Positions 3 through 13,800 of a stretch of 13,800 nucleotides of DNA are shown here, piece after piece. The position numbers and the translations under genes were made by a program. Origin of the DNA: a virus. Lineage: Duplodnaviria; Heunggongvirae; Uroviricota; Caudoviricetes. Location: the IMG/VR virus record IMGVR_UViG_2706794673_000002; one strand, given 5' to 3'. The notes beneath the pieces are model-generated. The model saw only the letters and a list, made by a program, of their open reading frames with translations. It made no database searches and had not been told where the DNA came from. Each line of letters opens with the position of its first letter. Position 1 is the first letter of the stretch.

Positions 3-212
3 TTATCGCTCGCCACGGGAATATCTGCGGCAGCGGGCTTGTAATGGGTTAAGTGATAACAGATGTCTGGAAATATAGGGGCAAATCCAATCGTCGCCGT
101 ATTCCCGTATTAACAGAGACCGTAGCCCGACGGGGAACTCCTTCTGCGCGAGTGTGCGGGAATAATCAAAAACGATGCACACCGGGGTTACCGGGTACAC
201 ATATTTCATCAT
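3..212 (-). CDS. hypothetical small protein (69 aa)
   Basis: Complete ORF with double-ATG start at 212/209 and TAA stop at 3-5. No convincing Shine-Dalgarno and no family recognised. Fully overlapped by an arginine-rich plus-strand ORF (53..256) that looks less protein-like. Confidence 0.25.
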   Translation of the reverse strand: MMKYVYPVTPVCIVFDYSRTLAQKEFPVGLRSLLIREYGDDWICPYISRHLLSLNPLQARCRRYSRGER

Positions 213-257
213 GCCAGCGAGTCCGGTTCTGGCACGGAAGAAACCGGACGTTATGAT

Positions 258-683
258 TTAGTGCGGAAATATTTGTGTAGTGTTCTGTATGTTCTCAGTA
301 AAGAGTAATGAATTATCAAAGGTATAGTAATACCTTTTGTTTTCGTGGATATTTGTAATCCATCTGAAAACCCCTGCTGTAGCAAGATTTTTCCTGTATT
401 CGTAAAATGATAACTCTCCTGATTTGAATCCTTTTAAGGTGGCTTCTATAAGGCATTTATTTTTTGAAAATCTTACATTTACAACCTTACCCTGTCCTTT
501 TATTAAAACCGTATTATCGTTTTCAAGAACAAGATGAATATTCTCTGTGGCTAAATAGTAAATGTAATGTGAGACATTGTGACGTTTTAGTTCAGAATAA
601 AACCAGTGATAGTTTAAATTATTTCGCACTTTATCGAATATTTGTTTAAAAATGGCAACCTGAGCCATTGTAGTACCTTCCAT
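258..683 (-). CDS. hypothetical protein, AT-rich accessory gene (136-141 aa); possibly DUF1398/YdfO-YbcV-like
   Basis: Long minus-strand ORF in a region of about 30-35% GC in sampled 60-nt blocks, versus about 55% in the structural genes. The second in-frame ATG (668-666) has a GGAAGG Shine-Dalgarno about 8 nt upstream, so the likely CDS is 258..668 (136 aa). No transmembrane stretch or catalytic motif recognised. Family assignment is from recalled gene order in E. coli lambdoid prophages, not from a search. Confidence 0.6.
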
Positions 684-725
684 GTGATATGAGGGGGCGT
701 AGTCTGCACGATTATCTAAATTGCT

Positions 726-959
726 TCAATCTGGTCTAACCTGTTTTCTGAGCAATTCAGTAATGTCACTCTTTTCTTTGTTTGCTTCAGGCGAAACTCT
801 TTTTTCTGAGCACAGTCTCCGGCGGCAGGCTTCAATGACCCAGGCTGAGAAATTCCCGGACCCTTTTTGAACAAGAGCGATGTTAATTTGTTCAATCATT
901 TGGTTAGGAAAGCGGATGTTGCGGGTTGTTGTTCTGCGGGTTCTGTTCTTCGTTGACAT
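726..959 (-). CDS. small ribbon-helix-helix-like DNA-binding protein (77 aa); possibly YnfO/YlcI-like
   Basis: Minus-strand ORF whose N-terminal region RNIRFPNQ-MIEQINIALVQKG-SGNFSAWVIEACRRRL follows the strand-helix-helix pattern of Arc/MetJ/CopG proteins. Lies 42 nt (57 nt if the 668 start is used) upstream of the 258..683 gene on the same strand. Weak AGGG Shine-Dalgarno-like element upstream of the ATG. Confidence 0.6.
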   Translation of the reverse strand: MSTKNRTRRTTTRNIRFPNQMIEQINIALVQKGSGNFSAWVIEACRRRLCSEKRVSPEANKEKSDITELLRKQVRPD

Positions 960-1099
960 GAGGTTGCCCTGTATTCAGTGTCGCTGATTTGTATTGTCTG
1001 AAGTTGTTTTTACGTTAAGTTGATGCAGATCAATTAATACGATACCTGCGTCATAATTGATTATTTGACGTGGTTTGATGGCGTAGATGCACGTTGTGA

Positions 1100-1330
1100 C
1101 ATGTAGATGATAATTATTATCATTTTGCGGGTCCTTTCCGGCGATCCGACAGGTTACGGGGCGGAAGGCGCGCGGGTTTTCGCTATTTATGACAATTTTC
1201 CGGTTTAAGGCGTTTCCGTTCTTCTTCGCCGTAACCTAATGTTTTTATTTAAAACACCCCCTGAAAAGAAAGGAAACGACAGGTGCTGAAAACGGGCTTT
1301 TTGGCCTCTGTCGTTTCCTTTCTCTGTTTT
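1100..1330. other. cos: cos region (cosQ side, cosN, cosB)
   Basis: Sequence ...gcgggtcctttccggcgatccgacaggttacg | gggcgg...cgcgggttttcgctatttatga... matches the lambda right-end/left-end junction as I recall it. Three CGTTTCC-type Nu1-binding repeats at 1211-1217 (+), 1272-1278 (inverted) and 1312-1318 (+) correspond to R3, R2 and R1, with an A/T-rich IHF-like tract between R3 and R2, immediately upstream of nu1. Confidence 0.85.
1159..1170. other. cosN: cosN 12-nt cohesive-end segment (GGGCGGAAGGCG)
   Basis: Position equivalent to the lambda 12-nt 5' overhang GGGCGGCGACCT, flanked by conserved acaggttacg and cgcgggttttcg. Six of twelve bases differ from the lambda sequence as recalled. Confidence 0.7.
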
Positions 1331-1347: not shown

Positions 1348-1867
1348 ATGGAAGTCAACAAAAAGCAGCTGGCTGACATTTTCGGTGCGAGTATCCGTAC
1401 CATTCAGAACTGGCAGGAACAGGGAATGCCCGTTCTGCGAGGCGGTGGCAAGGGTAATGAGGTGCTTTATGACTCTGCCGCCGTTATAAGATGGTATGCC
1501 GAAAGGGATGCTGAAATTGAGAACGAAAAGCTGCGCCGGGAAGTTGAAGAACTGCGGCAGGCCAGCGAGACAGATCTCCAGCCAGGGACTATTGAGTACG
1601 AACGCCATCGACTTACGCGTGCGCAGGCCGACGCACAGGAGCTGAAAAATGCCAGAGACTCCGCTGAAGTGGTGGAAACCGCATTCTGTACTTTCGTGCT
1701 GTCGCGGATCGCAGGTGAAATTGCCAGTATTCTCGACGGGATCCCCCTGTCGGTGCAGCGGCGTTTTCCGGAACTGGAAAACCGACATGTTGATTTCCTG
1801 AAACGGGATATCATCAAAGCCATGAACAAAGCAGCCGCGCTGGATGAACTGATACCGGGGTTGCTGA

Positions 1868-1893
<26 letters not shown>
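1348..1893 (+). CDS. nu1: terminase small subunit Nu1 (181 aa)
   Basis: Protein MEVNKKQLADIFGASIRTIQNWQEQGMPVLRGGGKGNEV... is near-identical to lambda gpNu1 with a few substitutions. Same length as lambda, sits directly downstream of the cosB R sites, TAA stop at 1891-1893. Confidence 0.97.
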
Positions 1894-5576
<3,683 letters not shown>

Positions 5577-5596
<20 letters not shown>

Positions 5597-6657
5597 TCTC
5601 CCGCATATTGCCAGCATGGCTTTTAATGAGCCGCTGATGCTTGAACCCGCCTATGCGCGGGTTTTCTTTTGTGCGCTTGCAGGCCAGCTTGGGATCAGCT
5701 GCCTGACGGATGCAGTATCCGGCGACAGCCTGACTGCCGGAGAGGCACCCGCGGCGCTGGCGTTATCCGGTGATGATGACGGACCACGACAGGCCCGCAG
5801 TTATCAGGTAATGAACGGCATCGCCGTGCTGCCGGTGTCCGGCACGCTGGTCAGCCGGACGCGGGCGCTGCAGCCGTACTCGGGGATGACCGGTTACAAC
5901 GGCATTATCGCCCGTCTGCAACAGGCTGCCAGCGACCCGATGGTGGACGGCATTCTGCTCGATATGGACACACCGGGCGGAATGGTGGCGGGAGCATTTG
6001 ACTGCGCTGACATCATCGCCCGTGTGCGTGACATAAAGCCGGTATGGGCGCTGGCCAATGACATGAACTGCAGCGCAGGTCAGCTGCTTGCCAGTGCCGC
6101 CTCCCGGCGTCTGGTCACGCAGACCGCCCGGACAGGCTCCATCGGCGTCATGATGGCTCACAGTAATTACGGCGCTGCACTGGAGAAACAGGGCGTGGAA
6201 ATCACGCTGATTTACAGCGGCAGCCATAAGGTGGATGGCAACCCCTACAGCCATCTACCGGATGATGTCCGGGAAACATTGCAGTCCCGGATGGATGCAA
6301 CCCGCCGGATGTTTGCACAGAAGGTGTCGGCATATACCGGCCTGTCCGTGCAGGCTGTGCTGGATACCGAGGCTGCAGTGTACAGCGGTCAGGAGGCCAT
6401 TGATGCCGGACTGGCTGATGAACTTGTTAACAGTACCGATGCGATCACCGTCATGCGTGATGCACTGGATGCACGTAAATCCCGTCTCTCAGGAGGGCGA
6501 ATGACCAAAGAGACTCAATCAACAACTGTTTCAGCCACTGCTTCGCAGGCTGACGTTACTGGCGTGGTGCAAGCGACGGAGGGCGAGAACGCCAGCGCGG
6601 CGCAGCCGGACGTGAACGCGCAGATCACCGCAGCGGTTGCGGCAGAAAACAGTCGCA
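5577..6657 (+). CDS. C: head maturation protease/scaffold C, 3' end masked
   Basis: GTG start at 5577 with GAGGAGG about 8 nt upstream, overlapping the B 3' end by 20 nt as in lambda. VTAELRNLPHIASMAFNEPLMLEPAYARVFF... matches lambda gpC. The ORF runs into the N block at 6658; expected end is near 6896 if collinear with lambda. Confidence 0.92.
6291..6657 (+). CDS. nu3: scaffolding protein Nu3 (internal in-frame start within C), 3' end masked
   Basis: In-frame ATG at 6291 (MDATRRMFAQKVS...), 714 nt downstream of the C start, the same offset as lambda nu3 relative to C. Confidence 0.8.
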
Positions 6658-6905
6658 NNNNNNNNNNNNNNNNNNNNNNNNNNNNNNNNNNNNNNNNNNN
6701 NNNNNNNNNNNNNNNNNNNNNNNNNNNNNNNNNNNNNNNNNNNNNNNNNNNNNNNNNNNNNNNNNNNNNNNNNNNNNNNNNNNNNNNNNNNNNNNNNNNN
6801 NNNNNNNNNNNNNNNNNNNNNNNNNNNNNNNNNNNNNNNNNNNNNNNNNNNNNNNNNNNNNNNNNNNNNNNNNNNNNNNNNNNNNNNNNNNNNNNNNNNN
6901 NNNNN
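6658..6905. other. masked or unsequenced block (248 N) covering the C/nu3 3' end and D start
   Basis: Run of N directly visible in the sequence. Confidence 1.
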
Positions 6906-7232
6906 AGCAAAGAAACCTTTACCCATTACCAGCCGCTGGGCAATAGTGACCCGGCTCATACCGCAACCGCGCCCGGCGGATTGAGTGCGAAAGCGCCTGC
7001 AATGACCCCGCTGATGCTGGACACCTCCACCCGTAAGCTGGTTGCGTGGGATGGCACCACCGACGGTGCTGCCGTTGGCATTCTTGCGGTTGCTGCTGAC
7101 CAGACCAGCACCACACTGACGTTCTACAAGTCCGGCACGTTCCGTTATGAGGATGTGCTCTGGCCGGAGGCTGCCAGCGACGAGACGAAAAAACGGACCG
7201 TGTTTGCCGGAACGGCAATCAGCATCGTTTAA
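6906..7232 (+). CDS. D: head decoration protein D, first two codons masked
   Basis: [41 protein letters not shown]...[11 protein letters not shown] matches lambda gpD residues 3-110. Inferred start at 6900 lies inside the N block. TAA stop at 7230-7232. Confidence 0.93.
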
Positions 7233-7249
7233 CTTTACCCTTCATCACT

Positions 7250-7274
7250 AAAGGCCGCCTGTGTGGCTTTTTTT
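7250..7274 (+). terminator. stem-loop followed by T-run in the D-E intergenic region
   Basis: aaaggcc-gcctgtgt-ggctttt followed by further T residues: a 7-bp stem with one G-U pair and an 8-nt loop, then a T tract. Sits 14 nt upstream of the E start. Could be a weak terminator or an RNA-stability or translation element. Confidence 0.3.
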
Positions 7275-7287
7275 ACGGGATTTTTTT

Positions 7288-8313
7288 ATGTCGATGTACA
7301 CAACCGCCCAGCTGCTGGCGGCAAATGAGCAGAAATTTAAGTTTGATCCGCTGTTTCTGCGTCTCTTTTTCCGTGAGAGCTATCCCTTCACTACGGAGAA
7401 AGTCTATCTCTCACAAATTCCGGGACTGGTAAACATGGCGCTGTACGTTTCGCCGATTGTTTCCGGTGAGGTTATCCGTTCCCGTGGCGGCTCCACCTCT
7501 GAATTTACGCCGGGATATGTCAAACCCAAGCATGAGGTGAATCCGCAGATGACCCTGCGTCGCCTGCCGGATGAAGATCCGCAGAATCTGGCGGACCCGG
7601 CTTACCGCCGCCGTCGCATCATCATGCAGAACATGCGTGACGAAGAGCTGGCCATTGCTCAGGTCGAAGAGATGCAGGCAGTTTCTGCCGTGCTCAAGGG
7701 CAAATACACCATGACCGGTGAAGCCTTCGATCCGGTTGAGGTGGATATGGGCCGCAGTGCGGCGAACAACATCACACAGTCCGGCGTCACGGAGTGGAGC
7801 AAGCGTGACAAGTCCACGTATGACCCGACCGACGATATCGAAGCCTACGCGCTGAACGCCAGCGGTGTGGTGAATATCATCGTGTTTGACCCGAAAGGCT
7901 GGGCGCTGTTCCGTTCCTTCAAAGCCGTCAAGGAGAAGCTGGATACCCGTCGCGGCTCTCATTCCGAGCTGGAGACAGCGGTAAAAGACCTGGGCAAAGC
8001 GGTGTCCTATAAGGGAATGTATGGCGATGTGGCCATCGTCGTGTATTCCGGACAGTACGTGGAAAACGGCGTCAAAAAGAACTTCCTGCCGGACAACACG
8101 ATGGTGCTGGGGAACACTCAGGCTCGCGGTCTGCGCACCTATGGCTGCATTCAGGATGCGGACGCACAGCGCGAAGGCATTAACGCTTCTGCCCGTTACC
8201 CGAAAAACTGGGTGACCACCGGCGATCCGGCGCGTGAGTTCACCATGATTCAGTCAGCACCGCTGATGCTGCTGGCTGATCCTGATGAGTTCGTGTCCGT
8301 TCAACTGGCGTAA
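7288..8313 (+). CDS. E: major capsid protein E (341 aa)
   Basis: From ATG at 7288, MSMYTTAQLLAANEQKFKFDPLFLRLFFRESYPFTTEKVYLSQIPGLVNMALYV... matches lambda gpE at the same 341-aa length. The six-frame track extends upstream to a GTG at 7261, which I reject. Confidence 0.97.
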   Translation: MSMYTTAQLLAANEQKFKFDPLFLRLFFRESYPFTTEKVYLSQIPGLVNMALYVSPIVSGEVIRSRGGSTSEFTPGYVKPKHEVNPQMTLRRLPDEDPQNLADPAYRRRRIIMQNMRDEELAIAQVEEMQAVSAVLKGKYTMTGEAFDPVEVDMGRSAANNITQSGVTEWSKRDKSTYDPTDDIEAYALNASGVVNIIVFDPKGWALFRSFKAVKEKLDTRRGSHSELETAVKDLGKAVSYKGMYGDVAIVVYSGQYVENGVKKNFLPDNTMVLGNTQARGLRTYGCIQDADAQREGINASARYPKNWVTTGDPAREFTMIQSAPLMLLADPDEFVSVQLA

Positions 8314-8354
8314 TCATGGCCCTTCGGGGCCATTTTCTCTCTGTGGAGGAGTTC

Positions 8355-8753
8355 ATGACGAAAGATGAACTGATTGCCCGTCTTCAGGAGCTGGGTGAGC
8401 AATTGAACCGCGATGTCAGTTTGACGGGAACGAAAGAAGAACTGGCGCTTCGTGTGGCAGAGCTGGAAGAAGAGCTTGATGACACGGATGAAACTGCCGG
8501 TCAGGACACCCCTCTCAGCCGGGAAAATGTGCTGACCGGGCATGAAAATGAGGTGGTATCAGCGCAGCCGGATACCGTGATTCAGGATACGGCTGAACTG
8601 GTCACGGTCGTGGCACTGGTGACGCTGCATACTGATGCACTTCACGCCACGCGGGATAAACCTGTGGCATTTGTGCTGCCGGGAACGGCGTTTCGTGTCT
8701 CTGCCGGTGTGGCAGCCGAAATGACAGAGCGCGGCCTGGCCAGAATGCAATAA
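8355..8753 (+). CDS. FI: head assembly/DNA packaging protein FI (132 aa)
   Basis: ATG at 8355 with GGAGGA Shine-Dalgarno. MTKDELIARLQELGEQLNRDVSLTGTKEELALRVAELEEELDDTDE... matches lambda gpFI. Confidence 0.95.
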   Translation: MTKDELIARLQELGEQLNRDVSLTGTKEELALRVAELEEELDDTDETAGQDTPLSRENVLTGHENEVVSAQPDTVIQDTAELVTVVALVTLHTDALHATRDKPVAFVLPGTAFRVSAGVAAEMTERGLARMQ

Positions 8754-8764
8754 CGGGAGGCGCT

Positions 8765-9118
8765 GTGGCTGATTTCGATAACCTGTTCGATGCTGCCATT
8801 GCCCGCGCCGATGAAACGATACGCGGGTACATGGGAACGTCAGCCACCATGACATCCGGTGAGCAGTCAGGTGCGGTGATACGTGGTGTTTTTGATGACC
8901 CTGAAAATATCAGCTATGCCGGACAGGGCGTGCGCGTTGAAGGCTCCAGCCCGTCCCTGTTTGTCCGGACTGATGAGGTGCGGCAGCTGCGGCGTGGAGA
9001 CACGCTGACCATCGGTGAGGAAAATTTCTGGGTAGATCGGGTTTCGCCGGATGATGGCGGAAGTTGTCATCTCTGGCTTGGACGGGGCGTACCGCCTGCC
9101 GTTAACCGTCGCCGCTGA
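8765..9118 (+). CDS. FII: head completion protein FII (117 aa)
   Basis: GTG start at 8765 with GGGAGG Shine-Dalgarno. MADFDNLFDAAIARADETIRGYMGTSAT... matches lambda gpFII at the same length. Confidence 0.95.
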   Translation: MADFDNLFDAAIARADETIRGYMGTSATMTSGEQSGAVIRGVFDDPENISYAGQGVRVEGSSPSLFVRTDEVRQLRRGDTLTIGEENFWVDRVSPDDGGSCHLWLGRGVPPAVNRRR

Positions 9119-9129
9119 AAGGGGGATGT

Positions 9130-9708
9130 ATGGCCATAAAAGGTCTTGAGCAGGCCGTTGAAAACCTCAGCCGTATCAGCAAAACGGCGGTGCCCGGTGC
9201 CGCCGCAATGGCCATTAACCGCGTTGCTTCATCCGCGATATCGCAGTCTGCGTCACAGGTTGCCCGTGAGACAAAGGTACGCCGGAAACTGGTAAAGGAA
9301 AGGGCCAGGCTGAAAAGGGCCACGGTCAAAAATCCGCAGGCCAGAATCAAAGTTAACCGGGGGGATTTGCCCGTAATCAAGCTGGGTAATGCGCGGGTTG
9401 TCCTGTCCCGCCGCAGGCGTCATAAAAAGGGGCAGCGTTCATCCCTGAAAGGTGGCGGCAGCGTGCTTGTGGTGGGTAACCGTCGTATTCCCGGCGCGTT
9501 TATTCAGCAACTGAAAAACGGCCGGTGGCATGTTATGCAGCGTGTGGCCGGGAAAAACCGTTACCCCATTGATGTGGTGAAAATCCCGATGGCGGTGCCG
9601 CTGACCACGGCGTTTAAACAGAATATTGAACGGATACGGCGTGAACGTCTTCCGAAAGAGCTGGGCTATGCGCTGCAGCATCAACTGAGAATGGTAATAA
9701 AGCGATGA
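9130..9708 (+). CDS. Z: tail completion protein Z (192 aa)
   Basis: MAIKGLEQAVENLSRISKTAVPGAAAMAINRVASSAISQSASQVARETK... matches lambda gpZ at the same length. Confidence 0.95.
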   Translation: MAIKGLEQAVENLSRISKTAVPGAAAMAINRVASSAISQSASQVARETKVRRKLVKERARLKRATVKNPQARIKVNRGDLPVIKLGNARVVLSRRRRHKKGQRSSLKGGGSVLVVGNRRIPGAFIQQLKNGRWHVMQRVAGKNRYPIDVVKIPMAVPLTTAFKQNIERIRRERLPKELGYALQHQLRMVIKR

Positions 9709-10100
9709 AACATACTGAACTCCGTGCAGCCGTACTGGATGCACTGGAGAAGCATGACACCGGGGCGACGCTTTTTGATGGTCGCCCCGCTGTTTTTGAT
9801 GAGGAAGATTTTCCGGCAATTGCCGTTTATCTCACCGGCGCTGAATACACGGGCGAAGAGCTGGACAGCGATACCTGGCAGGCGGAGCTGCATATTGAAG
9901 TTTTCCTGCCTGCTCAGGTGCCGGATTCAGAGCTGGATTCGTGGATGGAGTCCCGGATTTATCCTGTGATGAGCGATATCCCGGCACTGTCAGATTTGAT
10001 CACCAGTATGGTGGCCAGCGGCTATGACTACCGGCGCGACGATGATGCGGGCCTGTGGAGTTCAGCCGATCTGACTTATGTCATTATCTATGAAATGTGA
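9705..10100 (+). CDS. U: tail terminator protein U (131 aa)
   Basis: [54 protein letters not shown]... matches lambda gpU. ATGA overlap with the Z stop. Confidence 0.96.
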
Positions 10101-10107
10101 GGACGCT

Positions 10108-10674
10108 ATGCCTGTACCAAATCCTACAATGCCGGTGAAAGGTGCCGGGACCACCCTGTGGGTTTATAAGGGGAGCGGTGACCCTTATGCGAACCCGCTT
10201 TCAGACGTTGACTGGTCGCGTCTGGCAAAAGTTAAAGACCTGACGCCCGGCGAACTGACCGCTGAGTCCTATGACGACAGCTATCTCGATGATGAAGATG
10301 CAGACTGGACTGCGACCGGGCAGGGGCAGAAATCTGCCGGAGATACCAGCTTCACGCTGGCGTGGATGCCCGGAGAGCAGGGGCAGCAGGCGCTGCTGGC
10401 GTGGTTTAATGAAGGTGATACCCGTGCCTATAAAATCCGCTTCCCGAACGGCACGGTCGATGTGTTCCGTGGCTGGGTCAGCAGTATCGGTAAGGCGGTG
10501 ACGGCGAAGGAGGTGATTACCCGCACGGTGAAGGTCACCAATGTGGGACGTCCGTCGATGGCAGAAGATCGCAGCACGGTGACGGCGACGACCGGCATGA
10601 CGGTGACACCCGCCAGTGCTTCCGTGCGGTGTCTGCGGATAAAACAAAAGCCACCGTGTCGGTCAGTGGTATGA
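10108..10674 (+). CDS. V: major tail tube protein V, N-terminal tube domain intact, C-terminal Ig-like domain disrupted
   Basis: ATG at 10108 with GAGG Shine-Dalgarno. [42 protein letters not shown]...TVTPAS matches lambda gpV to about residue 160. The ORF then leaves the lambda frame and ends after an unrelated 20-aa tail ([18 protein letters not shown]), giving 188 aa from this start against 246 in lambda. Confidence 0.85.
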
Positions 10675-10778
10675 CCATCACCGTGAAAGGTGTTGCTGCA
10701 GGCAAGGTCAACATTCCGGTCGTATCTGGTAATGGTGAGTTTGCTGCGGTTGCAGAAATCAACGTCACCGCCAGTTAA
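10623..10778 (+). pseudogene. V: out-of-frame remnant of the gpV C-terminal Ig-like domain
   Basis: A different frame encodes [51 protein letters not shown] followed by a stop, matching the last about 50 aa of lambda gpV. About 25 residues of lambda gpV between TVTPAS and RAVSADK are missing, and the joint is shifted by 1 nt. Confidence 0.8.
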
Positions 10779-10793
10779 TCCGGAGAGTCAGCG

Positions 10794-11216
10794 ATGTTCC
10801 TGAAAACCGAATCATTTGAACATAACGGTGTGACCGTCACGCTTTCTGAACTGTCAGCCCTGCAGCGTATTGAGCATCTCGACCTGATGAAACGGCAGGC
10901 AGAACAGGCGGAGTCAGACAGCAACCGGAAGTTTACTGTGGAAGACGCCATCAGAACCGGCGCTTTTGTGGTTGCGATGTCCCTGTGGCATAACCATCCG
11001 AAGAAGACGCAGATGCCGTCCATGAATGAAGCCGTTAAACAGATTGAGCAGGAAGTGCTTACCACCTGGCCCACAGAGGCAATTTCTCATGCTGAAAACG
11101 TGGTGTACCGGCTGTCCGGTATGTATGAGTTTGTGGTGAATGATGCTCCTGAACAGGCAGAGGACGCCGGGCCTGCAGAGCCTGTTTCTGCGGGAAAGTG
11201 TTCGACGGTGAGCTGA
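10794..11216 (+). CDS. G: tail assembly chaperone G (140 aa)
   Basis: MFLKTESFEHNGVTVTLSELSALQRIEHLDLMKRQAEQAESDSNRKF... matches lambda gpG at the same length. GGAGAG Shine-Dalgarno upstream. Confidence 0.96.
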   Translation: MFLKTESFEHNGVTVTLSELSALQRIEHLDLMKRQAEQAESDSNRKFTVEDAIRTGAFVVAMSLWHNHPKKTQMPSMNEAVKQIEQEVLTTWPTEAISHAENVVYRLSGMYEFVVNDAPEQAEDAGPAEPVSAGKCSTVS

Positions 11217-11632
11217 GTTTTGCCCTGAAACTGGCGCGTGAGATGGGGCGACCCGACTGGCGCGCCATGCTTGCCGGGATGTCATCCACGGAGTATGCCG
11301 ACTGGCACCGCTTTTACAGTACCCATTATTTTCATGATGTTCTGCTGGATATGCACTTTTCCGGGCTGACGTACACCGTGCTCAGCCTGTTTTTCAGCGA
11401 TCCGGAGATGCATCCGCTGGATTTCAGTCTGCTGAACCGGCGCGAGGCTGACGAAGAGCCTGAAGATGATGTGCTGATGCAGAAAGCGGCAGGGCTTGCC
11501 GGAGGTGTCCGCTTTGGCCCGGACGGGAATGAAGTTATCCCCGCTTCCCCGGATGTGGCGGACATGACGGAGGATGACGTAATGCTGATGACAGTATCAG
11601 AAGGGATCGCAGGAGGAGTCCGGTATGGCTGA
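10794..11632 (+). CDS. T: tail assembly chaperone G-T fusion produced by -1 frameshift at 11192-11198
   Basis: The -1 frame ORF downstream of the slippery site (track ORF 11198..11632) matches lambda gpT. Total span of 839 nt equals the lambda G-T span. Its end overlaps the H start. Confidence 0.9.
11192..11198 (+). promoter_or_regulatory. -1 programmed ribosomal frameshift slippery heptamer G GGA AAG (G to G-T)
   Basis: Heptamer GGGAAAG lies in the G zero frame as (gc)G GGA AAG, 6 codons before the G stop. Reading in -1 from here continues as GKVFDGELSFALKLAREMGRPDW... to a stop at 11630-11632. Confidence 0.9.
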
Positions 11633-13800
11633 ACCGGTAGGCGATCTGGTCGTTGATTTGAGTCTGGATGCGGCCAGATTTGACGAGCAGATGGCCAGAG
11701 TCAGGCGTCATTTTTCCGGTACGGAAAGTGATGCGAAAAAAACAGCGGCAGTCGTTGAACAGTCGCTGAGCCGACAGGCGCTGGCTGCACAGAAAGCGGG
11801 GATTTCCGTCGGGCAGTATAAAGCCGCCATGCGTATGCTGCCTGCACAGTTCACCGACGTGGCCACGCAGCTTGCAGGGGGGCAGAATCCCTGGCTGATC
11901 CTGCTGCAACAGGGTGGTCAGGTTAAGGACTCCTTCGGCGGGATGATCCCCATGTTCAGGGGGCTTGCCGGCGCGATCACCCTGCCGATGGTGGGGGCCA
12001 CCTCGCTGGCGGTGGCGACCGGTGCGCTGGCGTATGCCTGGTATCAGGGCAACTCAACCCTGTCCGATTTCAACAAAACGCTGGTCCTTTCCGGTAATCA
12101 GGCGGGACTGACGGCAGATCGTATGCTGGTCCTGTCCAGAGCCGGGCAGGCGGCAGGGCTGACGTTTAACCAGACCAGCGAGTCACTCAGCGCACTGGTT
12201 AAGGCGGGGGTAAGCGGTGAGGCTCAGATTGCGTCCATCAGCCAGAGTGTGGCGCGTTTCTCCTATGCATCCGGCGTGGAGGTGGACAAGGTCGCTGAAG
12301 CCTTCGGGAAGCTGACCACAGACCCGACGTCGGGGCTGACGGCGATGGCACGCCAGTTCCATAACGTGACGGCGGAGCAGATTGCGTATGTTGCTCAGTT
12401 GCAGCGTTCCGGCGATGAAGCCGGGGCATTGCAGGCGGCGAACGAGGCCGCAACGAAAGGGTTTGATGACCAGACCCGCCGCCTGAAAGAGAACATGGGC
12501 ACGCTGGAGACCTGGGCAGACAGGACTGCACGTGCATTCAAATCCATGTGGGATGCGGTGCTGGATATTGGTCGTCCTGATACCGCGCAGGAGATGCTGA
12601 TTAAGGCAGAGGCTGCGTTTAAGAAAGCAGACGACATCTGGAATCTGCGCAAGGATGATTATTTCGTTAACGATGAAGCACGGGCGCGTTACTGGGATGA
12701 TCGTGAAAAAAAACGCCTGGAGCGGGATGCAGCCCAAAAGAGGGTAGATCAACAGCGTCAACAGGACAAAAATGCGCAGCAGCAGAGCGATACCGAAGCG
12801 TCACGGCTGAAATATACCGAAGAGGCGCAGAAGGCTTACGAACGGCTGCAGACGCCGCTGGAGAAATATACCGCCCGTCAGGAAGAACTGAACAAGGCAC
12901 TGAAAGACGGAAAAATCCTGCAGGCAGATTACAACACGCTGATGGCGGCGGCGAAAAAGGATTATGAAGCGACGCTGAAAAAGCCGAAACAGTCCGGCGT
13001 GAAGGTGTATGCGGGCGATCGTCAGGAAGACAGTGCTCATGCGGCCCTGCTGACGCTTCAGGCAGAACTCCGGACGCTGGAGAAGCATGCCGGAGCGAAT
13101 GAGAAAATCAGCCAGCAGCGCCGGGATTTGTGGAAGGCAGAAAGTCAGTTCGCGGTACTGGAGGAGGCGGCACAACGTCGCCAGCTGTCCGCACAGGAGA
13201 AATCCCTGCTGGCGCATAAAGACGAGACGCTGGAGTACAAACGCCAGCTGGCTGCACTTGGTGACAAGGTTACGTATCAGGAGCACCTGAATGCGCTGGC
13301 GCAGCAGGCGGATAAATTCGCACAGCAGCAACGGGCAAAACGGGCAGCCATTGATGCGAAAAACCGGGGGCTGACTGACCGGCAGGCAGCGCGGGAAGCC
13401 ACGGAACAGCGCCTGAAGGAACAGTATGGCGATAATCCTCTGGCGCTGAATAACGTCATGTCAGAGCAGAAAAAGACCTGGGCGGCTGAAGACCAGCTTC
13501 GCGGGAGCTGGATGGCAGGCCTGAAGTCCGGCTGGAGTGAGTGGGAAGAGAGCGCCACGGACAGTATGTCACAGGTTAAAAGTGCAGCCACGCAGACCTT
13601 TGATGGTATTGCACAGAATATGGCGGCGATGCTGACCGGCAGTGAACAGAACTGGCGCAGCTTCACCCGCTCCGTGCTGTCCATGATGACAGAAATTCTG
13701 CTTAAGCAGGCAATGGTGGGGATTGTCGGGAGTATCGGCAGCGCCATTGGCGGGGCTGTTGGTGGCGGCGCATCCGCGTCAGGTGGTACAGCCATTCAGG
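11625..13800 (+). CDS. H: tail tape measure protein H, 3' truncated by the window edge
   Basis: ATG at 11625 with AGGAGGAG Shine-Dalgarno. MAEPVGDLVVDLSLDAARFDEQMARVRRHFSGTESDAKKTAAVVEQSLSRQALAAQKAGISVGQYKAAMRMLPAQFTDVATQLAGG... matches lambda gpH. The frame stays open for about 725 codons to the end of the window. Confidence 0.96.
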   Translation, partial: MAEPVGDLVVDLSLDAARFDEQMARVRRHFSGTESDAKKTAAVVEQSLSRQALAAQKAGISVGQYKAAMRMLPAQFTDVATQLAGGQNPWLILLQQGGQVKDSFGGMIPMFRGLAGAITLPMVGATSLAVATGALAYAWYQGNSTLSDFNKTLVLSGNQAGLTADRMLVLSRAGQAAGLTFNQTSESLSALVKAGVSGEAQIASISQSVARFSYASGVEVDKVAEAFGKLTTDPTSGLTAMARQFHNVTAEQIAYVAQLQRSGDEAGALQAANEAATKGFDDQTRRLKENMGTLETWADRTARAFKSMWDAVLDIGRPDTAQEMLIKAEAAFKKADDIWNLRKDDYFVNDEARARYWDDREKKRLERDAAQKRVDQQRQQDKNAQQQSDTEASRLKYTEEAQKAYERLQTPLEKYTARQEELNKALKDGKILQADYNTLMAAAKKDYEATLKKPKQSGVKVYAGDRQEDSAHAALLTLQAELRTLEKHAGANEKISQQRRDLWKAESQFAVLEEAAQRRQLSAQEKSLLAHKDETLEYKRQLAALGDKVTYQEHLNALAQQADKFAQQQRAKRAAIDAKNRGLTDRQAAREATEQRLKEQYGDNPLALNNVMSEQKKTWAAEDQLRGSWMAGLKSGWSEWEESATDSMSQVKSAATQTFDGIAQNMAAMLTGSEQNWRSFTRSVLSMMTEILLKQAMVGIVGSIGSAIGGAVGGGASASGGTAIQ

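Follow-up and report, generated by a model that had tools for sequence, protein, structure and literature searches.

Evidence that the ynfO-ydfO accessory region beside cos of lambda-like phages probably consists of two separate genes rather than one module

The IMG/VR virus record IMGVR_UViG_2706794673_000002 (Caudoviricetes) was analysed over a stretch of 13,800 nucleotides, hereafter the window, which represents the late-gene end of a phage or prophage resembling lambda. At its left end two open reading frames (ORFs) lie on the minus strand, opposite to the late operon, one of 77 amino acids at 726..959 and one of 141 amino acids at 258..683. The latter contains an in-frame ATG at position 668 that gives a product of 136 amino acids (258..668). 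Depending on the start chosen the two genes are separated by 42 nt (684-725) or 57 nt (669-725), as given in a preliminary description of the sequence. To their right follow Nu1, the small terminase gene, at 1348..1893, the large terminase subunit and a series of plus-strand morphogenesis ORFs. The GC-content is 31.4% in the larger gene (30.7% at third codon positions), 44.4% in the smaller one, 52.7% in Nu1 and 56.8% in the late region 1348-13800, which bears out the contrast of 30-35% to about 55% GC seen previously.

Profile searches with both proteins gave matches to Pfam families above the curated cut-offs, and the two ORFs are real genes. The product of 258..683 matched DUF1398 (PF07166) over the full profile (positions 1-119 of 119) with an E-value of 3e-43 and 147 bits (cut-off 22). 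A close homologue, YdfO of Escherichia coli, has been solved by nuclear magnetic resonance (NMR; PDB 2hh8; E 1.4e-69), and the protein has the YdfO fold. It shares 78% identity with YbcV, 76% with lambda p78 and 76% with YdfO of K-12, from which it differs as an allele. Thus, the former view of a protein with no recognisable motif has to be given up. The start at ATG 668 is likelier than that at ATG 683, because a Shine-Dalgarno-like GGAAGG (676..681, minus strand), as read from the sequence, is located 7 nt upstream of the former while nothing comparable precedes the latter, and because RefSeq uses the start corresponding to 668 for ydfO (411 nt in K-12) and ybcV. The GGAAGG is kept in the window, in lambda and in the K-12 prophages Qin and DLP12. 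The 77-residue protein matched DUF3950 (PF13132) with an E-value of 2e-20 and 72.8 bits (cut-off 25), and the NCBIfam model YlcI_YnfO_N (NF041551) with 35.2 bits (cut-off 30). It is identical to K-12 YnfO at 75 of 77 positions (97%), and its residues 1-54 are 96% identical to YlcI and to a 64-amino-acid ORF of lambda. We therefore refer to the gene at 726..959 as ynfO and to that at 258..668 as the DUF1398 gene, of the ydfO/ybcV/lambda p78 family.

In families, order, strand, gene lengths (234 and 411 nt) and the 57-nt gap the cassette equals ynfO-ydfO (b4533, b1549) of Qin. In both elements it adjoins and diverges from a small terminase gene, which in Qin is the Nu1 homologue nohA, and the 5' region of ydfO including a PdhR box (see below) is almost the same; only the spacer of the box reads cta in the window and ctg in Qin. 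The likeness to Qin, to which the preliminary description had pointed, is exact. On the other hand, the window cassette is part of an apparently intact lambda-like late region, whereas Qin is a decayed prophage. Lambda (lambdap78, lambdap79 and the unnamed 64-amino-acid ORF) and DLP12 (ybcV-ybcW-ylcI) contain both cassette genes as well, and the DNA of window and lambda is colinear from the bor-proximal side to cos. DNA identity to lambda is 83% for the DUF1398 coding sequence, 95% for the YnfO core (800-959), 59% for the YnfO tail and 95% for the 199 bp from the ynfO start to cosN (960..1158). Yet in lambda and DLP12 about 560 bp of extra DNA with the opposite-strand gene ybcW/p79 separate the two genes, and the tail of the YnfO homologue is shorter and different (64 amino acids). 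In both of them bor lies further left, downstream, while the window and its near relatives have neither ybcW nor bor. The slot had been described as the place where lambda carries bor; this is inaccurate, for lambda has bor plus, adjoining, homologues of both genes. ybcW/lambdap79, at 2364-2570 of the lambda locus (L001), has no counterpart in the window. lambdap79 was scored essential for lambda by CRISPR interference (CRISPRi; PMC10695390); our guess is that this effect was a block of the late transcript.

How tightly the two genes are coupled was examined by tblastn of 50,697 GenBank phage records. The YnfO core was present in 153 records, DUF1398 in 43. Phages converting to Shiga toxin (Stx) 1 or Stx2 production carry the YnfO core only, without DUF1398. 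In an Stx2a prophage a lone ynfO homologue is situated between the lysis genes and an unrelated packaging module of HNH, TerS (small terminase subunit) and TerL (large terminase subunit) genes. A DUF1398 subgroup of 44% identity corresponds to E. coli ycgX, which lies beside iraM and bluR at the border of e14. None of the 36 ycgX loci on viral contigs had a homologue of YnfO, Nu1 or Rz, where only 3 of them include sequence upstream of ycgX, i.e. on the ynfO side. In 33 of these 36 IMG/VR prophage predictions (loci L182-L217) ycgX sits exactly at the end of the contig, as if the programs that call prophage boundaries cut the element next to e14 at this gene. More remote DUF1398 homologues (25-38% identity) all came from Enterobacteriaceae, namely Kluyvera, Klebsiella, Pseudocitrobacter, Raoultella and Salmonella. 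A YnfO-like ORF or Nu1 was absent within 4 kb at all 20 distant loci, and the contexts inspected were chromosomal or island (YeeE/TusA/GapC, GGDEF/cold-shock, SopE). These genes and ycgX share the Pfam family, the length and the predicted secondary structure with the window gene at 25-44% identity, but stand alone, with neither a DUF3950 gene nor a terminase nearby. The phage counts, the lone ynfO of the Stx2a prophage and the stand-alone DUF1398 genes speak for two genes in the cassette and not for one module. They probably are independently regulated accessory genes.

The region between the two genes points in the same direction. A promoter-like site on the minus strand (711..738), inside the end of ynfO, has a -35-like TAGACC (738-733), a 16-nt spacer and a -10 hexamer GATAAT (716-711) with 9 of 12 consensus matches. 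GATAAT is kept in Qin, DLP12 and lambda, with a 3-nt shift in the latter two. The site may serve as the promoter of the DUF1398 gene. A PdhR-box-like palindrome, AtcTGGTctaACCtgTT (729..745, plus strand), with the core TGGTNNNACC at 732-741, overlaps the last ynfO codons and the -35-like hexamer. Across window, Qin, DLP12 and lambda it reads AtcTGGTct(a/g)ACCt(g/c)TT. From this box to the start codon of the DUF1398 gene the four elements are homologous. The DNA beyond the box is unrelated, being the ynfO tail in two elements and the ybcW side in the other two. Because the conserved block starts at the PdhR box despite the differing upstream neighbours, we infer that the DUF1398 gene is separately controlled. 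The argument for a PdhR box is based on positional homology with mapped K-12 sites and not on motif statistics. By position and sequence the palindrome matches the PdhR sites of K-12 (10 of 14 each) that were located by genomic SELEX (systematic evolution of ligands by exponential enrichment) at both loci, ybcV/ybcW and ynfO/ydfO (PMC7660256). In a pdhR mutant of K-12 the mRNA was reduced 10-fold for ybcV and 8.9-fold for ybcW (PMC7660256).

Further data on the homologues are available from the literature. RNA sequencing of K-12 displayed an overlap of the convergent ybcW and ylcI transcripts ('excludon'; PMC12288877), an ionic liquid induced ydfO 12- to 116-fold (PMC4077768), and overexpression of DicC altered ydfO expression. 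Hence the K-12 genes are transcribed in the prophage state, and by analogy the same may hold for the window gene. CRISPRi of lambdap78 resulted in efficiencies of plating of 1.9 and 1.3 (PMC10695390); going by these lambda data the DUF1398 gene would be dispensable for lytic growth. We did not use a statement that YdfO overexpression confers resistance to oxidative stress (PMC4077768). It cites Wang et al. 2010 (PMC3105296), a paper without ydf names that deals with YfdK, YfdO and YfdS of prophage CPS-53, and probably is a gene-name mix-up.

YnfO is a basic protein of about 9 kDa with a pI of 10.9 and six Arg/Lys within the first 20 residues. In the family alignment its core (residues 1-50) is almost invariant, while the C-terminal tail is variable and mosaic. 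An AlphaFold2 model of the monomer (predicted local distance difference test score, pLDDT, about 85) has an unstructured segment (residues 1-18), a helix (19-32), G33 and a second helix (34-52). YnfO resembles Arc and Mnt of phage P22 in size and in the register of the N-terminal motif (NLRWP in Arc, NIRFP in YnfO); both sides have a Gly between the helices and a Ser at the start of helix B, and the model is a helix-turn-helix hairpin of equal lengths. In particular, RNIRFP...G.SxNFS of YnfO is in register with NLRWP...G.SVNS of Arc, the sequence of which was checked against the PDB. The preliminary description saw a clear ribbon-helix-helix pattern. The pattern itself, RNIRFP, helix, G33, helix, is present; significance in profile or fold searches is not. 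An hhalign comparison with Arc found the correct register at a probability of 3%. The YnfO profile had no match in the PDB, none of the Pfam ribbon-helix-helix families came up at E-values up to 10 in 18 YnfO members, and Foldseek with the YnfO model returned no match. The power of this comparison is low, as the family profile is very shallow (effective number of sequences, Neff, 1.6). Thus, a ribbon-helix-helix protein is plausible from the motif and the model. One tblastn match of the YnfO core, located in Pasteurella phage Pmp7 at a gene labelled 'transcriptional repressor', was discarded, as it is on the opposite strand of that gene. Point mutations of ylcI were listed in two evolution studies without a functional claim, and we suspect noise from the mapping of paralogues.

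The DUF1398 protein was modelled as two alpha-alpha-beta-beta-beta repeats (pLDDT 87.7; predicted template-modelling score 0.81), and the profiles of its halves display weak self-similarity (P 9e-4). A comparison of 19 diverse members left only L27, Y35, T41, N43, G99 and Y114 as nearly invariant positions; acidic, His and Cys residues are not conserved. The protein has neither a signal peptide nor a hydrophobic segment (maximal Kyte-Doolittle mean over 19 residues 0.39). In the fold search it resembled no structure of known function apart from 2HH8. Variability by position in 39 E. coli DUF1398 proteins has just a mild peak at residues 71-80, in a helix. Taken together, these features and the model would fit a soluble protein with a binding role, rather than an enzyme, a protein of the membrane or a part of the virion. 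The family is small, with 189 of 1.84 billion cluster representatives matching at E ≤0.001. Sub-threshold matches to HEPN_AbiA_CTD (15.8 bits versus a cut-off of 27; E 0.014), to anthranilate synthase in NCBIfam and to Csx23 in PADLOC (E 0.025) were dismissed as noise.

We thus arrive at a reading to which we give about an even chance, namely that the ynfO-ydfO (ylcI/ybcV) accessory region between lysis genes and cos holds two separate genes which share a slot, and not a two-part machine. The DUF1398 gene would be controlled by its own 5' region, composed of a weak -35 under the PdhR box (729-745), the GATAAT -10 (716-711) and the GGAAGG site. We propose that in the prophage the gene is transcribed from this region leftward, opposite to the late operon, and with a link to PdhR, the pyruvate sensor of the host; binding of and dependence on PdhR are taken from work on the K-12 homologues. 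The product, of about 16 kDa, is predicted to be soluble and cytoplasmic; it most likely binds a host component conserved in Enterobacteriaceae, and is presumably not an enzyme, a toxin or a virion part. YnfO with its Arc-like N-terminus (RNIRFP, helix, Gly, helix) would most likely be a dimeric DNA-binding regulator of the ribbon-helix-helix type, and DUF3950 appears to accompany the packaging end of lambdoid genomes both with and without DUF1398. A GC-content of 31% versus 57%, position and strand, the neutral knock-down of lambda p78 and the PdhR-dependent K-12 homologues are those of a prophage accessory ('moron') gene. The earlier proposal of a foreign moron slot with expression signals of its own agrees with orientation, GC-content, the conserved promoter-like region and the K-12 expression data. 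Among familiar accessory genes, bor and lom of lambda likewise are non-essential, lie between functional modules and do not depend on the late operon for their expression; yet their products reside in the outer membrane and have known phenotypes, while the cassette proteins have neither export signals nor a known phenotype.

Several points weigh against two separate genes with the roles just described. In the lineage of the window the YnfO core is present in 77 of 80 IMG/VR loci that carry the window's DUF1398 allele, with both genes in the same orientation and 57 nt apart, and ynfO and the DUF1398 gene may there be co-transcribed or functionally linked. The PdhR core motif occurs three times in the window at 1.5 expected and hence is not enriched above chance. 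The putative promoter of the DUF1398 gene is just a consensus match. A box that overlaps the -35 would more usually repress; therefore the reported activation by PdhR may be indirect. The ribbon-helix-helix assignment of YnfO failed every significance test at the profile and fold level, the blank result with the 2023 PADLOC set may leave room for an undescribed defence role, and a function has been shown for no member of either family.

The likeness to toxin-antitoxin, abortive-infection or exclusion modules put forward initially found no support. If the pair were a type II toxin-antitoxin or abortive-infection system, YnfO would be the ribbon-helix-helix antitoxin and autorepressor and the DUF1398 protein the toxin. 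Like in ParDE, RelBE and CcdAB, a small, basic gene for a possibly DNA-binding protein directly precedes another small gene at a distance of 42-57 nt on the same strand of a mobile element; the setting is an AT-rich prophage region, and the window lineage keeps the pair together (77/80 loci). In contrast to those systems, a promoter-like site and the PdhR box inside the end of ynfO precede the 57-nt gap, co-occurrence is loose (153 versus 43 phage records) and the second protein matches no toxin family or fold. Furthermore, the homologues in lambda and DLP12 are split by an opposite-strand gene, and the DUF1398 gene comes with a conserved 5' region of its own. DUF1398 genes exist alone in E. 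coli (ycgX), Klebsiella, Kluyvera, Salmonella and others, which speaks against a toxin, because a toxin should not survive without its antitoxin. PADLOC had no match, and the one toxin-like hit, HEPN_AbiA_CTD, stayed sub-threshold. Thus, we consider a toxin-antitoxin pair very unlikely. A related thought is that the DUF1398 protein, alone or with YnfO, acts in anti-phage defence or superinfection exclusion by an uncatalogued mechanism. Prophage accessory slots often hold such genes, rexAB being among the genes expressed in lambda lysogens (PMC7067206), the cassette is AT-rich and directed against the late operon, its K-12 homologues are expressed in the prophage state, and the variability among E. 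coli DUF1398 paralogues, mild as it is, peaks in the helix 71-80. Yet PADLOC-DB 2.0 had no entry matching YnfO and for the DUF1398 protein only the above Csx23, the protein has no nuclease, NTPase, TIR/SIR2, membrane or other effector-like feature, its homologues are single genes in ordinary chromosomal contexts, and the literature searched holds no link of DUF1398 or DUF3950 to defence. No finding points to a role in defence or exclusion, and this explanation is unlikely in our opinion. That the DUF1398 protein is a component of virion or envelope could be taken from database labels, i.e. 'head protein' for PHROG 413 and 'putative envelope protein' or 'head protein' in lambda-type GenBank/RefSeq records. 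These labels derive from automatic annotation and not from experiment. The gene is on the strand opposite to the late operon, signal peptide and hydrophobic segments are absent, the homologue was solved as a soluble monomer by NMR, CRISPRi of lambda p78 leaves plating unaffected and homologues are chromosomal genes outside of prophages, so that we regard a virion or envelope role as extremely improbable.

Finally, YnfO could be a cis-linked regulator of the packaging end that binds near cos or the terminase promoter, or damps antisense transcription or late read-through, with the DUF1398 gene as a passenger. The YnfO core is always immediately upstream of, and divergent from, packaging genes, be it Nu1/A in lambda or HNH/TerS/TerL in the Stx2a phage, and YlcI/YnfO proteins occur in capsid-forming phage-inducible chromosomal islands (PICIs) with TerS/TerL of their own (PMC13612085). 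The high conservation of the YnfO core and of the 199 bp to cosN, compared to the ynfO tail, and the repeats conserved in the cos-left region are consistent with such a function. One of these, an inverted repeat of 13 nt, ATCAATTAATACG / CGTCATAATTGAT (1029-1041/1049-1061), with a 7-nt spacer, precedes the ynfO start by 70-100 bp and is shared without change by Qin and DLP12. In front of the ynfO homologue of the Stx phage it is missing, and the region corresponding to 960..1158 is not conserved there. Hence the repeats belong to the lambda-type cos-left region and not to ynfO, and a family-wide YnfO operator at 1029-1061 was ruled out. A shared operator is missing, since the DNA upstream of ynfO differs between lambda-type and Stx-type elements, and the high conservation may merely reflect linkage to cos and frequent recombination. 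A consensus scan detected no sigma-70 site for ynfO within 960..1158. We know of no need for the region left of cosQ in lambda packaging. Overall, a regulator of the packaging end appears quite unlikely as the explanation of the cassette, and two separate accessory genes remain our preferred reading.

Some additional features of the region were observed. A sigma-70-like site on the plus strand (1096-1123; GTGACA, 16 nt, TATCAT; 10 of 12 matches) points toward cos and Nu1. It is overlapped by a near-perfect palindrome, ATGATAAT-T-ATTATCAT (1107-1123), about 35 bp left of cosN, and both are conserved in lambda, Qin and DLP12. cosN, the right-hand limit of the cassette, was positioned at 1159..1170 (plus strand) by alignment with lambda. 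Its 12 bases are GGGCGGAAGGCG in the window versus GGGCGGCGACCT in lambda, i.e. 5 of 12 differ between lambda-like flanks. The GGGCGGAAGGCG variant was present in 12 of about 151 cos matches among related IMG/VR loci, and in PhiR49_1, a closely related inducible phage, cosN is canonical. At the other end, just past the stop codon of the DUF1398 gene, a hairpin GTCCGGTT / AACCGGAC (221..249, minus strand; inverted repeat I9) is a weak candidate for a terminator. With a folding energy of -15.2 kcal/mol, a z-score of -1.46 and no U tract it was unconvincing, and the terminator scan did not call it. Further left are two small ORFs, 3-212 (minus) and 53-256 (plus), in DNA with 79% identity to the non-coding bor-promoter region of lambda. 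The hexamers of the lambda bor promoter are not kept there, related loci have no bor homologue following, and PHROG matches of the two ORFs were partial and to unannotated or spanin-labelled families; they look like annotation noise. Rfam and tRNA scans of the window gave no match. The window has two runs of N, 3152-3401 (250 bases) inside the large terminase ORF and 6658-6905 (248 bases) inside the long plus-strand morphogenesis ORF 5442..7232, and because of them the intactness of these two genes cannot be judged from the window.

The cassette is a known, very common and uncharacterised gene pair, and not a new system; the families, the genes and a structure are already in the databases. Of 5,426 complete genomes of E. 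coli, 4,184 have the ynfO core (9,861 places in total) and 5,376 have DUF1398 DNA (8,879 places). RefSeq labels the region 'DUF1398 domain-containing protein | YlcI/YnfO family protein | DNA-packaging protein'. A y-ome survey of 2024 has ynfO and ydfO as uncharacterised (PMC11551758), and for ycgX no inference was possible in a study of 2025. In public sequence collections many contigs of about 3.5 kb in the European Nucleotide Archive carry error-ridden copies of lambda YlcI and YbcV, near-identical proteins are filed under Staphylococcus aureus, Bacillus sp., Klebsiella and the spider Caerostris extrusa, and a 48-kb record 'Campylobacter phage CJLB-4' contains the right end of lambda. Such records look like contamination of assemblies by lambda control or vector DNA, the source of which, as a guess, may be the 3.6-kb nanopore control amplicon.

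The discovery is modest. Both genes are among the few conserved reading frames of lambda without a known role. Their probable independence narrows the experiments that are worthwhile, and it stops false labels like 'toxin-antitoxin' or 'head protein' from spreading. The most interesting loose end is the position of YnfO, which is kept beside two unrelated terminase systems and in capsid-forming PICIs. As a long shot, YnfO might be a conserved DNA-binding factor at the packaging end of lambdoids and PICIs irrespective of the terminase, and the DUF1398 protein, separately, a PdhR-wired effector by which prophages sense or modulate the pyruvate metabolism of the host. In the prophage or in satellite interference YnfO could then act, for example, on the use of cos, on terminase expression or on late read-through. 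If true, either role would explain genes that have long been unexplained in phage lambda.

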